Positions 9,001 to 15,000 of a stretch of 24,933 bases of DNA are shown piece after piece (within the stretch, counting starts at the first letter, position 1; every line of letters begins with the position of its first letter). Source of the stretch: a virus (Duplodnaviria; Heunggongvirae; Uroviricota; Caudoviricetes); the IMG/VR virus record IMGVR_UViG_2859810971_000004; one strand, 5' to 3'. The position numbers are program-made.

Positions 9001-12000
9001 TTACCACACCTGATTTAAGATGCAGCTCGCACCGTGGGACGTTTCCGGGAGCCCCCTCAGGGCGCTCTGAGGTGTACTGGCAATTGAGGTGTACTGGCAA
9101 TAGCGGACACTACCATTTGTTCTTTTTTTAAGCAGTCATCTGATGATATTTTTCCCTGAAGGCTGCCGGGGAGATATTCCCCAGACGAGAGTGACGACGC
9201 TGACGATTGTAGAAAATCTCAATGTATTCCCGTATTACTGAGATGGCTTCATCCCGGTTATTAAAACGATAGTGGCTCAGGCTCTCATTTTTCAGCGTTC
9301 CCCAGAAGCTTTCCATCGGAGCGTTGTCGTAACAGTTACCTTTACGCGACATTGATGTTTTCAGACCAAACTGCTCCTGTATGACCCGGTAATCGTATGC
9401 GCAGTACTGTGAACCTCGATCAGAGTGGTGGATTAGCCCGGCAGGTGGGCGCTGGCTCCTGAGCGCCATAAACAGGGCTTTACCTGTCAGCTCTTTTGTC
9501 ATGCGCTCTCCCATGGCGTAGCCGACAATTTCGCACGTATAAACATCTTTGATGCCAGCGAGGTACAACCATCCCTCCTGTGTGGCAACATACGTCAGGT
9601 CCGCCACCCAGACCTGATTTGGTGCTGTAGGAGCGAACGTCTGGTTCAGCAGATTTGGCGCAACTGGCAGATTGTGGTTCGGGTTCGTAGTCGCTCTGAA
9701 CTTGCGTTTCTGCTTACAGCGTAGCCTCAGCTCCTTACGAAGACGTGCCAGTCGGTCACGACCAACGATGATGCCATTCTCTGCCAGCTCCGTCTGGAGC
9801 CGCCGGGTTCCATATGTTTCGCGAGTGCGGATATGTGCCACCTTAATCTCCGGTTTTAGCCGCTCATCACTTTGTTTTCTGTCTGAGGGTTCATGCTGTA
9901 CCCAGTTGTAATAACCGCTCCTGGATACACCAAATACCTGACACATCGCTTCAATGGGAAATTGTTGTCGCCATTGTTCGATTAACGCGTATTTTTCAGC
10001 GACTCCTGTGCAAAATACGCTGTTGCTTTTTTTAATATATCTCGCTCAAGGCGAGCTTCATTTAACGCCTTACGCAGTTGCAGAATTTCAGATTCCAGTT
10101 CAGCCACCGTGCGGGAACCAGGAGTACCGAGCCCTTTTCTGGCGGCGGTAACCCATTGTCCTAAAGTGCCTTCAGGAAGGGATAATCGGGAAGCGCCTTC
10201 ACTGATCGAAAGTTGATTTTCAAGAACCGTTCTGACAGCTTCGGCTTTGAACTCTTTAGAGTAACGTTGGGTTTTTCTGCTCATTATTAGCTCCTTCTGA
10301 TGCCATTCTATTTCAGGAAGGAGTGTCCATTAAACTCAGGCTACCTCAGTTTATCTTCAAATCTTAAACGCAGGGCATCAGGCAAATAAGAACGGAAGCA
10401 GGGAATATCTTTTGTTGTCTGGGAATTCATCGTTCGTGTCCATCAATATAGATGGGCGCGATTGTTGCCAGACAGGACAATTTTCACAAGACGTCGCTGA
10501 TGGGGCGCTTACTGTTGTTCTGAGGTGAGCATATCACCTCTGTTCAGGTGGCCAAATTCAGTGTGCCACTTCAAATTAAGCATTGCCAGAATGATTACAT
10601 ACCAGCGTTAATGGCTAACCAACGAAGCCAAGGTTGGTAATTAAGGAGTTCTCCACGGGTGAGGTGGAGTGCGTGCGCCGGACACGGGTGAGTATCCGGC
10701 ATGTTCTTTAAAAATCTGAATACCTTGACTCAAAAATCATTATTGAAATTGTAGTCCATGAGATACTCATTTTTACAGGAGGGGCATTGAGTTTTCGTAT
10801 ATTTATCGCCTTCCTCGATAGGGAAAGGTTGCAATATAGATATTGCTCTCTTCGCAAAACATTCTGGACAAAAATACATGGTAATCTTGCCAGAGCTAGT
10901 ATTGCACTGTCTGGCATACACAATCGTTCCAGTAATCAATTAGCGAGGTTCGCAGTCTTCACTTTGGAACTTAAACTTTTCTATCTCCGTGAGTTTTGCT
11001 TTGAGCGCAGCCTCATTGCTTTTAGAGATTGTCAGCTCATCAATGAGAGACAAATATTCAAGCTGAATGCTTGACAACTTAGAGTTTATTTCAGACACAG
11101 CGCGATCAACCTCAGCCTGAGTTTTTGCTTCATTGAATAATTTTAACATTGATGCAGTCTCTTTGAGAGCTGACATCGCTAATACATCACTTGCTCACTC
11201 TTCTTATTGTTGGGGTATTCAGATTATACAAATTTCTTGTTGTTGGGGAATAACAGGAACCACCTCGCCTGACGTAGTTAAAAGCAGGCACACAACGCGA
11301 AATGACGCGGCGGTAAGTATGGCGGAGTTATTCCTTCCCCGTTGAGGACACCGGGTTGTCAGGTTGACCATACGCTTAAGTGACAACCACGCCACAACAC
11401 TCCATGTTGATTGGTACCTTTGGCGGCATCAGTTTCATTGCTGGCTGATGTCCGCCCTTTTTAAAGTGAATTTTGTGATGCGGTGAATGCGGCTGAGCGC
11501 ACGCGGAACAGTTAAAAAGCGATTAGTTCCCACGTATCGGGTGGTTATGGGTTTCCCTGTATCCGGCGTTAATTGTTAACTGGTTAACGTCACCTGGAGG
11601 CACCAGGCACCGCATCAACAAAGTTCACTTCGGTGATGAAAGGTAAGAGAAAATGTTGAATGTAGCTATTGAAAACCAGAACGGGTGGAATTATAGTGCA
11701 TCTGCACCTCATAAAACGGGGGCCGGGCGTGGAAACCCGAACGTTACTCGAGCGCATAGCCGCGCTGAAGCGGTTTTTTTATGCGTAATGCACAGCTCCA
11801 TTCAAATTATGGTGGGATGTGCAGGGCAGTCGCAAGACTGGCCGGGTTCTCGAGTGACCGGTATTTCCACCCCTGTACGTCTCACCACCCTTATGGTCGT
11901 GGAAAACCTCGGTGGTGAGTTAATTAACTTATCACTCGAGGATGCCATCATGGCTACTATCCCTGCCCTTTCTCACCCTGACGTAACCATCGAAAACGGT

Positions 12001-15000
12001 CGCGCTGTCACTACGTCTGTTGCGGTTGCAGAGTTCTTCCACAAACGACACGACAATGTGTTACGTGCCATCGCAAATACTGAATGCTCACCTGAATTTA
12101 ACGCCCTCAATTTTGAGGACGTCACCTACACCGACACCAAAGGCGAAAAACGCCCAATGTACCAAATCACCAAAAACGGCTTCGTTTTCCTGGTGATGGG
12201 CTTCACTGGGAAAAAAGCCGCTGCATTCAAAGAGGCCTACATCGCTGATGTTCGACCGCATGGAGGCAGAACTGCACCAGAATAATACCCCGTCCGCTGA
12301 CAAGATGATTCCGGGTAACGGTCGCACTCTGGTTGTGCACTTCGACGAACACGGCAATATCAGATTCACCGAAACTGTTCCTGACGGTGCACTGGTCTGT
12401 ACCCTGGATACTTTCCAGTTTTATCTGGAAAAACAGGGGTGGGCTCTTGTAAACCGGAGCGCAATTAAAAATATGACCGTAGAGCAGCTGCTAGACTGGC
12501 CCCCTGAATCTCCAGACAACCAGTATCACTTATTTAAGTGATAGTCTTAATACTAGTTTTTAGACTTGTCATTGGAGAACAGATTATTGATGTCTTAGGG
12601 CCGGAGAAACGCAGACGGCGTACCACACAGGAAAAGATCGCAATTGTTCAGCAGAGCTTTGAACCGGGGATGACGGTCTCCCTCGTTGCCCGGCAACATG
12701 GTGTAGCAGCCAGCCAGTTATTTCTCTGGCGTAAGCAATACCAGGAAGGAAGTCTTACTGCTGTGGCCGCCGGAGAACAGGTTGTTCCTGCCTCTGAACT
12801 TGCTGCCGCCATGAAGCAGATTAAAGAACTCCAGCGCCTGCTCGGCAAGAAAACGATGAAAAATGAACTCCTCAAAGAAGCCGTTGAATATGGACGGGCA
12901 AAAAAGTGGATAGCGCACGCGCCCTTATTGCCCGGGGATGGGAGTAAGCTTAGTCAGCCGTTGTCTCCGGGTGTCGCGTGCGCAGTTGCACGTCATTCTC
13001 AGACGAACCGATGACTGGATGGATGGCCGCCGCAGTCGTCACACTGATGATACGGATGTGCTTCTCCGTATACACCATGTTATCAGAGAGCTGCCCACGT
13101 ATGGTTATCGTCGGGTATGGGCGCTGCTTCGCAGACAGGCAGAACTTGATGGTATGCCTGCGATCAATGCCAAACGTGTTTACCGGCTCATGCGCCAGAA
13201 TGCGCTGTTGCTTGAGCGAAAACCTGCTGTACCGCCATCGAAACGGGCACATACAGGCAGAGTGGCCGTGAAAGAAAGCAGTCAGCGATGGTGCTCTGAC
13301 GGGTTCGAGTTCTGCTGTGATAACGGAGAGAGACTGCGTGTCACGTTCGCGCTGGACTGCTGTGATCGTGAGGCACTGCACTGGGCGGTGACTACCGGCG
13401 GCTTCAACAGTGAAACAGTACAGGACGTCATGCTGGGAGCGGTGGAACGCCGCTTCGGCAACGATCTTCCGTCGTCTCCAGTGGAGTGGCTGACGGATAA
13501 TGGTTCATGCTACCGGGCTAATGAAACACGCCAGTTCGCCCGGATGTTGGGACTTGAACCGAAGAACACGGCGGTGCGGAGTCCGGAGAGTAACGGAATA
13601 GCAGAGAGCTTCGTGAAAACGATAAAGCGTGACTACATCAGTATCATGCCCAAACCAGACGGGTTAACGGCAGCAAAGAACCTTGCAGAGGCGTTCGAGC
13701 ATTATAACGAATGGCATCCGCATAGTGCGCTGGGTTATCGCTCGCCACGGGAATATCTGCGGCAGCGGGCTTGTAATGGGTTAAGTGATAACAGATGTCT
13801 GGAAATATAGGGGAAAATCCAGCTGCTAAGTATGAGGTGTACTGGCAATAGCGGACACTACCATTTGTTCTTTTTTTAAGCAGTCATCTGATGATATTTT
13901 TCCCTGAAGGCTGCCGGGAGATATTCCCCAGACGAGAGTGACGACGCTGACGATTGTAGAAAATCTCAATGTATTCCCGTATTACTGAGATGGCTTCATC
14001 CCGGTTATTAAAACGATAGTGGCTCAGGCTCTCATTTTTCAGCGTTCCCCAGAAGCTTTCCATCGGAGCGTTGTCGTAACAGTTACCTTTACGCGACATT
14101 GATGTTTTCAGACCAAACTGCTCCTGTATGACCCGGTAATCGTATGCGCAGTACTGTGAACCTCGATCAGAGTGGTGGATTAGCCCGGCAGGTGGGCGCT
14201 GGCTCCTGAGCGCCATAAACAGGGCTTTACCTGTCAGCTCTTTTGTCATGCGCTCTCCCATGGCGTAGCCGACAATTTCGCACGTATAAACATCTTTGAT
14301 ACCAGCGAGGTACAACCATCCCTCCTGTGTGGCAACATACGTCAGGTCCGCCACCCAGACCTGATTTGGTGCTGTAGGAGCGAACGTCTGGTTCAGCAGA
14401 TTTGGCGCAACTGGCAGATTGTGGTTCGGGTTCGTAGTCGCTCTGAACTTGCGTTTCTGCTTACAGCGTAGCCTCAGCTCCTTACGAAGACGTGCCAGTC
14501 GGTCACGACCAACGATGATGCCATTCTCTGCCAGCTCCGTCTGGAGCCGCCGGGTTCCATATGTTTCGCGAGTGCGGATATGTGCCACCTTAATCTCCAG
14601 TTTTAGCCGCTCATCACTTTGTTTTCTGTCTGAGGGTTCATGCTGTACCCAGTTGTAATAACCGCTCCTGGATACACCAAATACCTGACACATCGCTTCA
14701 ATGGGAAATTGTTGTCGCCATTGTTCGATTAACGCGTATTTTTCAGCGACTCCTGTGCAAAATACGCTGTTGCTTTTTTTAATATATCTCGCTCAAGGCG
14801 AGCTTCATTTAACGCCTTACGCAGTTGCAGAATTTCAGATTCCAGTTCAGCCAGCGTGCGGGAACCAGGAGTACCGAGCCCTTTTCTGGCGGCGGTAACC
14901 CATTGTCCTAAAGTGCCTTCAGGAAGAGATAATCGGGAAGCGCCTTCACTGATCGAAAGTTGATTTTCAAGAACCGTTCTGACAGCTTCGGCTTTGAACT

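Follow-up and report, generated by a model that had tools for sequence, protein, structure and literature searches.

The window analysed here, a stretch of 24,933 nucleotides from Shigella flexneri CP026810.1 (assembly locus L008), very probably carries a dead antirepressor gene within a decayed Rac-like prophage, lying beside the scar of an IS600-linked deletion. The gene, rha, had been reported in a first-pass annotation as hit by a frameshift, by IS2 and by IS600, and all three lesions are present in the sequence; the third, however, is not a plain insertion into the gene but marks, on the left, where ~21.9 kb has been deleted, so that rha now adjoins a second antirepressor module in inverted orientation. 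A search for tRNA genes in the window returned none. The features on which the argument rests are the following.

11704..11780, + strand: isrK-like sRNA leader of module A (Rfam RF01394, at 59.6 bits, the gathering score being 50).
11805..11892, + strand: C4-antisense-RNA-like element of module A (Rfam RF01695, at 76.7 bits, the gathering score being 45).
11950..12248, + strand: 5' part of rha in the original frame (PF09669 match and alignment to intact homologues; 184-aa homologues are annotated from the same start).
12249..12249, + strand: inserted T, a +1 frameshift (absent in L001-L003 and L030; present in 16 fetched loci).
12250..12491, + strand: 3' part of rha, out of frame, ending in the left IS2 target duplication GCTGC (12487-12491).
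12492..13821, + strand: IS2, 1330 bp, in the same orientation as rha (99.2% identity to RefSeq-annotated IS2; Pfam HTH_Tnp_1 and rve).
13822..13832, + strand: right GCTGC (13822-13826) and TAAGTA (13827-13832), the last six surviving nucleotides of rha (read against the empty site in L030).
13833..15095, - strand: IS600 copy 4, 1263 bp (99.5% identity to annotated IS600; left flank colinear with L005, right flank with L038).
15096..15137, - strand: 14-codon stump (MTTQISVETLSPIT) of the ORF6N-family second antirepressor gene, module B (same junction in 13 draft contigs).
15189..15390, - strand: leader of module B, comprising a C4-like element (15189-15273), isrK (15301-15377) and a c4-a1b1 motif (15338-15390), with Rfam scores of 77.6, 75.6 and 52.2 bits, each exceeding its gathering score.
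15409..16083, - strand: Q-like antiterminator gene (DUF1133), upstream of module B (PF06576, E 5e-108; Phage_antitermQ, E 6e-6).

The start of rha is the ATG at 11950, with GAGGA placed 7 nt to its 5' side, and the intact gene has 184 codons. Residues 21-99 of the open reading frame beginning at 11950 match Phage_pRha (PF09669) in a Pfam search with an E value of 1.8e-28 and 99.4 bits, against a curated cut-off of 29.9; the C-terminal part gave no Pfam match. Among phage homologues the annotation antirepressor or Rha is frequent and, on the basis of homology and gene context, the product is predicted to be an antirepressor. The family domain is present but the 184-aa frame is broken, by a stop after 111 aa and by IS2 and IS600 at the 3' end, and we therefore consider rha in the window to be a pseudogene of this family. 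The intact protein, as reconstructed, exists: an exact protein look-up recovered it as a 283-aa gene model (P0166) on an S. flexneri draft contig, L030. Between the ATG at 11653 and the IS2 site the DNA of L030 differs from that of the window only by absence of the inserted T and by one silent SNP; four additional differences lie 5' of 11653. In this intact allele a single GCTGC is followed by kilR, ydaE and recE. A further pair of intact S. flexneri Rha proteins (P0123 and P0125) was considered as ancestor and rejected: the N-terminal half is the same, but the C-terminal half differs and marks a separate mosaic allele.

Alignment to three intact E. coli homologues (L001-L003) places the frameshift precisely. 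The window reads GCTGA[T]GTTCGAC where the homologues read GCTGAGTTCGAC, that is, there is one extra T, at position 12249, which every close homologue lacks; without it the natural sequence at the site is ...AYIAEFDRMEAEL. The insertion creates an ATG (12248-12250) and brings a premature stop, TAA (12283-12285), into frame. It had been proposed that the Rha domain lies in one frame and continues naturally in the next as MFDRMEAEL; the frameshift is genuine, but the initial M is a product of the inserted T, the natural residue being E.

That the frameshift might reflect a sequencing or assembly error, or else a natural two-ORF organization or programmed frameshifting, deserves attention given that the assembly of the window carries three private 1-bp deletions, at about 12939, 13916 and 23436, in homopolymer runs within IS copies, which resemble consensus errors. 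The extra T, by contrast, stands outside any homopolymer (GA-T-G) and is found in every S. flexneri locus fetched that has the same arrangement: 16 loci, from at least 10 independently sequenced complete genomes. Its occurrence in so many independent genomes leads us to conclude that the mutation is real. As to a natural division of the gene into two overlapping reading frames, the best 120 among 1598 homologues are each encoded in one ORF, 184-187 or ~282-284 aa long, barring shorter or partial gene models. We regard an artefact, or a normal split reading, as next to impossible. The two truncated rha products are themselves common, occurring in 242 and 358 blocks of the collection, S. flexneri 2a 301 among them. 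An exact-pattern scan of genome contigs for a frameshift-free allele gave no match, in a collection that holds too few Shigella strains.

The second lesion is as first described in that IS2 interrupts rha with an intact 5-bp duplication; to this must be added that the element lies only four sense codons and a stop from the natural end of the gene. The element is close to the standard length of about 1331 bp, near-identical to annotated copies (RefSeq loci labelled 'IS3-like element IS2 family transposase'), has orfA and orfB with the two expected domains, and is bounded by terminal inverted repeats, its ends reading TAGACTGG... and ...AAATCCA. GCTGC stands on both sides of the element. A 5-bp match is expected by chance about once in 1024. 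The uninterrupted site in L030, GAGCAGCTGCTAAGTATTAAATAA, contains just one GCTGC, which shows that the repeat is a true target duplication. The same reading, GCTGC followed by TAAGTA, is obtained for the sequence 3' of IS2 in nine other genomes. Exact-pattern scans of genome and metagenome contigs for the IS2-free site ATGACCGTAGAGCAGCTGCTAAGTA gave no match, there being too few Shigella strains among them. Comparison of copies across strains shows that the IS2 of the window has lost a G at 12939, a private change that disrupts orfB and orfAB, and that its right inverted repeat has A in place of C at 13814.

The third lesion requires a different interpretation. IS600 copy 4, near-identical to annotated copies and close to the standard length of about 1264 bp, does begin 6 bp beyond the IS2 duplication, directly after TAAGTA, and this is the one observation that favors simple transposition into the last codons of rha with the original downstream DNA lying beyond. 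The element was also said to have removed the rest of rha; the end of the gene is indeed lost, but this amounts to merely 8 nt of the ORF, two codons (I, K) plus the stop. Three observations speak against simple transposition. Copy 4 has no 3-bp target duplication, its flanks in the orientation of the element being ACC and TAC; duplications accompany copy 1 (GTT), copy 2 (GCA) and the copy within ant in L010 (CTG). Past the element lies not the TTAAATAA-kilR sequence that the intact allele and ten other genomes have there, but the 5' end of a different gene in inverted orientation, the 14-codon stump of the second antirepressor gene. Finally, the two flanks of copy 4 each align colinearly with CP034931.1, at loci separated there by ~22 kb. 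Simple insertion is thus highly improbable.

The arrangement prior to deletion is preserved in other strains. In CP034931.1, and with the same layout in CP026772.1, rha and an IS600-interrupted ant are convergent, and removal of 21,922 bp from the arrangement in CP034931.1 gives that of the window, both sides aligning colinearly at 99.5-99.7%. The interval missing at the locus comprises kilR, ydaE, recE', gam, an integrase remnant, sitABCD, and tail-fibre and prophage remnants. KilR matches the NCBIfam FtsZ-inhibitor model, while sitBCD are 99.9% identical to the RefSeq annotation, on which the naming of SitC and SitD rests, NCBIfam having no equivalog for either. Among the eleven complete genomes examined the IS2/IS600 junction occurs once, in the window's own assembly; in all ten other complete S. 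flexneri genomes fetched, frameshift and IS2 are followed directly by kilR. CP026810.1 lacks, at the rha locus, the ~22 kb that carries the sitABCD iron/manganese transporter in other S. flexneri. The segment may have been relocated elsewhere in CP026810.1 by inversion or translocation rather than lost, in which case IS600 would be expected with the reciprocal junctions GTA-TTAAATAA... and ...ACC-CATAACCAG. Another locus, L010 (LR213452.1), in which rha and ant are 6 kb apart, was considered as direct ancestor and set aside: it has undergone a separate IS-mediated deletion along with other rearrangements, and IS600 joins ant there 9 bp away from the junction in the window.

The right-hand junction bears on how the deletion occurred. 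IS600 meets ant at codon 14 in the window, as against codon 17, with the duplication CTG, in the common S. flexneri state. Recombination between two copies would not by itself explain why these 9 bp are missing, so that a further IS600 event nearby has to be postulated. That IS600 had simply inserted into ant at codon 14 was also considered and rejected, the hypothetical 189-aa product being absent from the collection. No genome on record has a simple IS600 insertion at either breakpoint of the deletion. The SNPs of copy 4 give it a hybrid appearance: the IRL half is like the module-B copies of other strains and the IRR half like the other copies in the window, a pattern that speaks for the history proposed below but could also have arisen by gene conversion between IS copies. 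The 269-aa ORF of its transposase matched CP026810.1 and no other genome in a look-up, and the private 1-bp deletion in this gene may be an assembly error.

An alternative to recombination is a one-step adjacent deletion, in which the IRR end of the module-B IS600 attacked TAAGTA^T in the same molecule with no need for a second copy. The end product fits, with one element, no target duplication, and both the orientation and the IRL neighborhood retained. Adjacent deletions, though, are not a direct product of IS3-family transposition, which is of the copy-out/paste-in type and proceeds via a circular intermediate. Moreover, the IRL junction is also shifted 9 bp from the common state, and the IRR half of copy 4 has SNPs unlike those of module-B copies in other strains. 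We deem a single-step origin unlikely, and favor recombination between two IS600 copies.

The history that we propose is as follows. In the ancestor of most sequenced S. flexneri a single T would have been inserted after codon 99 of rha, cutting the product to 111 aa and, in the same ancestor, before or after this event, IS2 would have entered four sense codons 5' of the stop, duplicating GCTGC. IS600 would already have been resident in the 5' end of the second antirepressor gene of a neighboring prophage, convergent to rha. Much later, in the lineage of CP026810.1, the ~21.9 kb between the 3' end of rha and the convergent IS600 would have been lost, leaving one IS600 devoid of a target duplication. 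The most likely route, we infer, is that an extra IS600, oriented like the resident one, inserted at TAAGTA, and that the two direct copies then underwent homologous recombination. The first-pass annotation had read a sequential order of decay from the locus. Comparison of the eleven complete genomes bears this out in that the IS600 junction is the latest event, but the sequence alone provides no order, and either the frameshift or IS2 may have come first, no intermediate with a single hit having been recovered: exact look-ups among gene calls, where a missing call is not proof of absence, returned no match to the frameshift-only 85-aa ORF or to the IS2-only ORFs of 196 and 295 aa.

Two antirepressor genes at this locus have been inactivated in separate events: frameshift and IS2 disabled rha, and IS600 disabled the ORF6N gene, ant. 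For ant the collection contains an intact 185-aa protein as well as the common form with IS600. In different lineages IS600 occupies two different sites in ant. The sRNA leaders of both genes are intact, with isrK and C4 matches above the Rfam gathering scores 5' of each. It is conceivable, if doubtful, that selection in S. flexneri, as opposed to neutral decay, has put a toxic antirepressor-to-antiterminator pathway out of action and has spared the prophage sRNAs for use in host regulation.

The organization of these modules invites comparison with known systems. In Gifsy-1 of Salmonella the layout isrK-orf45-anrP controls the AnrP antirepressor (Hershko-Shalev et al. 2016, PMC4825925). As in antQ-isrK-orf45-anrP of that prophage, isrK precedes here a short leader, conserved and containing a 45-codon ORF (11781-11918, overlapping the C4-like element of module A and resembling orf45), and then an antirepressor gene of ~180 aa, and module B sits directly 3' of a Q-like antiterminator gene. 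Unlike Gifsy-1, module A does not follow Q but belongs to the early-left operon of a prophage of Rac-like type (ydfC ... rha ... kilR/dicB), its 45-codon ORF stops 31 nt 5' of the rha ATG and does not overlap it, and both antirepressor genes are broken. Salmonella Rha-family proteins of 184 aa share 79-81% identity with the reconstructed protein, and AnrP of Gifsy-1 may be among these. In the 282-284-aa gene models named 'Rha family', some 99 codons are probably sRNA leader read as protein.

By analogy, regulation of the C4/isrK type may be supposed for the antirepressor genes described here. The immI operon of phages P1 and P7 consists of the c4 antisense RNA, icd and ant. It shares with the present loci a C4-family RNA and an a1b1 target motif 5' of the antirepressor gene (RF01695, RF03163), but the N-terminal domain of the antirepressor is here Rha or ORF6N. 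With phi80 Rha and the Phage_pRha family the likeness lies in the N-terminal domain, which matches PF09669 strongly; unlike phi80 Rha, the C-terminal half is common only to enterobacterial prophage alleles.

Decay of the locus is of the ordinary IS-driven type previously described in Shigella. In S. flexneri ~24% of interrupted genes carry an IS plus another inactivating mutation (Hawkey et al. 2020, PMC7373316), and Shigella strains also differ by deletions between IS copies (PMC7373316). The rha locus is one worked example of this process, with nothing essential that is different, and as a case it adds little beyond book-keeping. Its merit is that of a clean reconstruction of prophage-gene decay in Shigella by point indel, IS insertion and IS-linked deletion, for which both the empty site and the arrangement preceding the deletion have been recovered from other strains.

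The rha gene, which encodes a Rha-family antirepressor-like protein, sits behind an RNA leader and is followed by two insertion sequences and by the leader of a second antirepressor gene, ant:

11704-11780, plus strand: isrK-like sRNA (Rfam, above gathering score)
11781-11918, plus strand: 45-codon ORF upstream of rha
11805-11892, plus strand: C4-family RNA (Rfam, above gathering score)
ATG at 11950, plus strand: rha ORF, with GAGGA 7 nt upstream
12492-13821: IS2, 99.2% identical to annotated IS2, GCTGC on either side
13833-15095, minus strand: IS600 copy 4, directly after GCTGC and TAAGTA
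beyond copy 4, minus strand: in order, a Q-like DUF1133 gene, isrK, C4 and a 14-codon stump (MTTQISVETLSPIT) of the ORF6N antirepressor

Pfam Phage_pRha covers residues 21-99 of the ORF from 11950 (E 1.8e-28). The intact E. coli homologue belongs to the early-left operon of Rac/Qin-like prophages, with ydfC on one side and kilR/ydaE or dicB on the other. RefSeq gene models of homologues start 99 codons upstream (the equivalent of 11653) and yield 282-284 aa; other annotations take the proximal ATG and yield 184 aa. For S. dysenteriae an orf45-anrP 'fusion' of 287 aa has been described (PMC4825925). Substitutions per codon position among four alleles number 12:12:15 in the extension versus 35:24:69 in the rha body. 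The 99-codon extension, and perhaps the Pfam family PF10554 too, may be a translated RNA leader. Residues 14-96 of the extension (11653-11949) fall under PF10554 (Ash protein family), also in three intact E. coli alleles, and this region coincides exactly with the isrK and C4 RNAs.

The first-pass annotation had read the locus as a gene hit by a frameshift, then IS2, then an IS600 removing the remainder. The frameshift is genuine. Alignment to the three intact alleles reveals a single additional T at 12249, GCTGA[T]GTTCGAC; the shifted frame ends at TAA 12283-12285 with a product of 111 aa, and the ATG at 12248 exists because of the inserted T alone (natural sequence ...AYIAEFDRMEAEL). The ancestral protein, rebuilt by taking out T12249 and IS2, is 283 aa long and matches exactly a protein of an S. 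flexneri draft (P0166, EFX2140644.1), whose contig (L030) lacks the T and, from the gene-model ATG at 11653 to the IS2 site, has a silent SNP as its one further difference from the window. T12249 lies outside any homopolymer and occurs in all S. flexneri loci fetched with this arrangement, drawn from at least 10 independent complete genomes; truncated Rha products are found in hundreds of assemblies. T12249 is a real, fixed mutation. The best 120 of 1598 rha homologues are single ORFs, which excludes a naturally split gene.

The IS2 insertion is likewise borne out. The uninterrupted site in L030 (GAGCAGCTGCTAAGTATTAAATAA) holds GCTGC once, and the motif is doubled around IS2; the target duplication is therefore real. 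The natural C-terminus is ...EQLLSIK*. The replacement caused by IS2 is confined to the final four residues, so in functional terms the frameshift is the inactivating lesion.

IS600 copy 4 does begin right after the IS2 repeat and TAAGTA, but it is the edge of a deletion and not an insertion into rha. Its flanks, ACC versus TAC, form no 3-bp duplication, whereas copies 1 and 2 have one. In CP034931.1 the rha and ant::IS600 loci are convergent and lie 21,922 bp apart. The window aligns colinearly to each of them at 99.5-99.7% identity and has none of the intervening sequence, so that the third 'hit' is a deletion endpoint. The stretch gone from the window contains kilR (NCBIfam FtsZ inhibitor), ydaE, recE', gam, remnants of an integrase and of tail fibres, an integrase of 534 aa, the body of ant, and sitABCD, for which RefSeq annotates a 99.9% match as sitB, sitC and sitD. 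CP026772.1 is arranged likewise, rha and ant::IS600 being about 20.9 kb apart. In ten other complete S. flexneri genomes the frameshifted rha::IS2 is followed directly by TTAAATAA, kilR, ydaE, recE', IS600 and gam; the IS2-IS600 junction occurs in the window's own assembly only, one of 11 complete genomes examined. On this distribution, the deletion endpoint at copy 4 is the latest event at the locus.

Most S. flexneri carry IS600 at ant codon 17 with the duplication CTG (P0167, in 432 contigs). The window and 13 draft contigs have this junction at codon 14, which is 9 bp nearer the ant start and calls for one or more additional local IS600 events. By its SNPs, copy 4 looks like a hybrid of a copy of the type found at ant and some other copy; this mildly favours recombination between two IS600 copies over a one-step deletion. 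The two isrK/C4 leaders (11704-11892, plus; 15189-15390, minus) lie on either side of the IS2/IS600 block and point towards each other, with about 72% identity along the aligned leader-plus-flank stretch; rha and ant are both broken, and the RNAs of both leaders score above Rfam thresholds.

In LR213452.1, compared with CP034931.1, the interval from gam to the ORF6N ant gene was lost independently, via another IS3-family element, and the loss again takes in sitABCD. With two strains showing independent losses, the region between the convergent prophage remnants appears to be a place where IS-mediated deletion recurs.

The window is 100% identical to Shigella flexneri CP026810.1 across the 20.6 kb fetched, and source names of its encoded proteins are Shigella flexneri, strain 2a 301 among them. 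Its 25 kb hold five IS600, two IS2 (one complete, one truncated), an IS1, an IS66-family element and an ipaH gene. The second IS2 (22843-23397) ends after about 555 bp, cut by IS600 copy 5 (23398-24660). The 3-bp duplication is missing from IS600 copies 3, 4 and 5, marking three of the five as rearrangement or nested-insertion junctions. IS600 does insert in or next to its own ends: the right-end tip is repeated over 17 bp (TGAGGTGTACTGGCAAT, 9068-9084) beside copy 3 (9085-10348), and in LR213452.1 12 bp of the left-end tip (about 14494-14505 of locus L010) lie next to another copy. The pattern suggests that new IS600 copies enter the ends of those already in place, with recombination to follow.

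Three 1-bp deletions are private to this assembly, each in a homopolymer run within an IS copy:

about 12939: IS2, G4 to G3
13916-13918: IS600 copy 4, G run
23436-23441: IS600 copy 5, T run (A when read along the IS)

The first breaks IS2 orfB, and this IS2 also has a private C-to-A change at 13814 in its right inverted repeat; a 269-aa IS600 ORF left by a private deletion is found in no other assembly. The three may be long-read consensus errors. A YbcO-family gene (96 aa), elsewhere between the DUF1367 and DUF1133 genes, is uncalled here (16084-16250), which may reflect another frameshift or assembly error. Rfam also matches CssrB (145.7 bits, 2631-2813, minus) and sok/CssrC (118.1 bits, 18335-18509, minus); at the latter position a Hok/Gef-family ORF is called in related loci (L008, L036-L045).

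The first-pass observation was thus correct, with IS600 reread as a deletion edge and the order of events known in part: the IS600 junction came last, and the frameshift and IS2 are not ordered, single-hit rha intermediates of neither kind (frameshift only or IS2 only) being on record. Among known systems, rha and its leader have the same layout as the Gifsy-1 isrK-orf45-anrP antirepressor module (PMC4825925). Hawkey et al. (PMC7373316) report that Shigella reference genomes each carry at least 199 pseudogenes and that 24% of interrupted S. flexneri genes have an IS plus another inactivating mutation, and describe IS-facilitated deletions. The rha locus is a well-resolved instance of this already known decay process.
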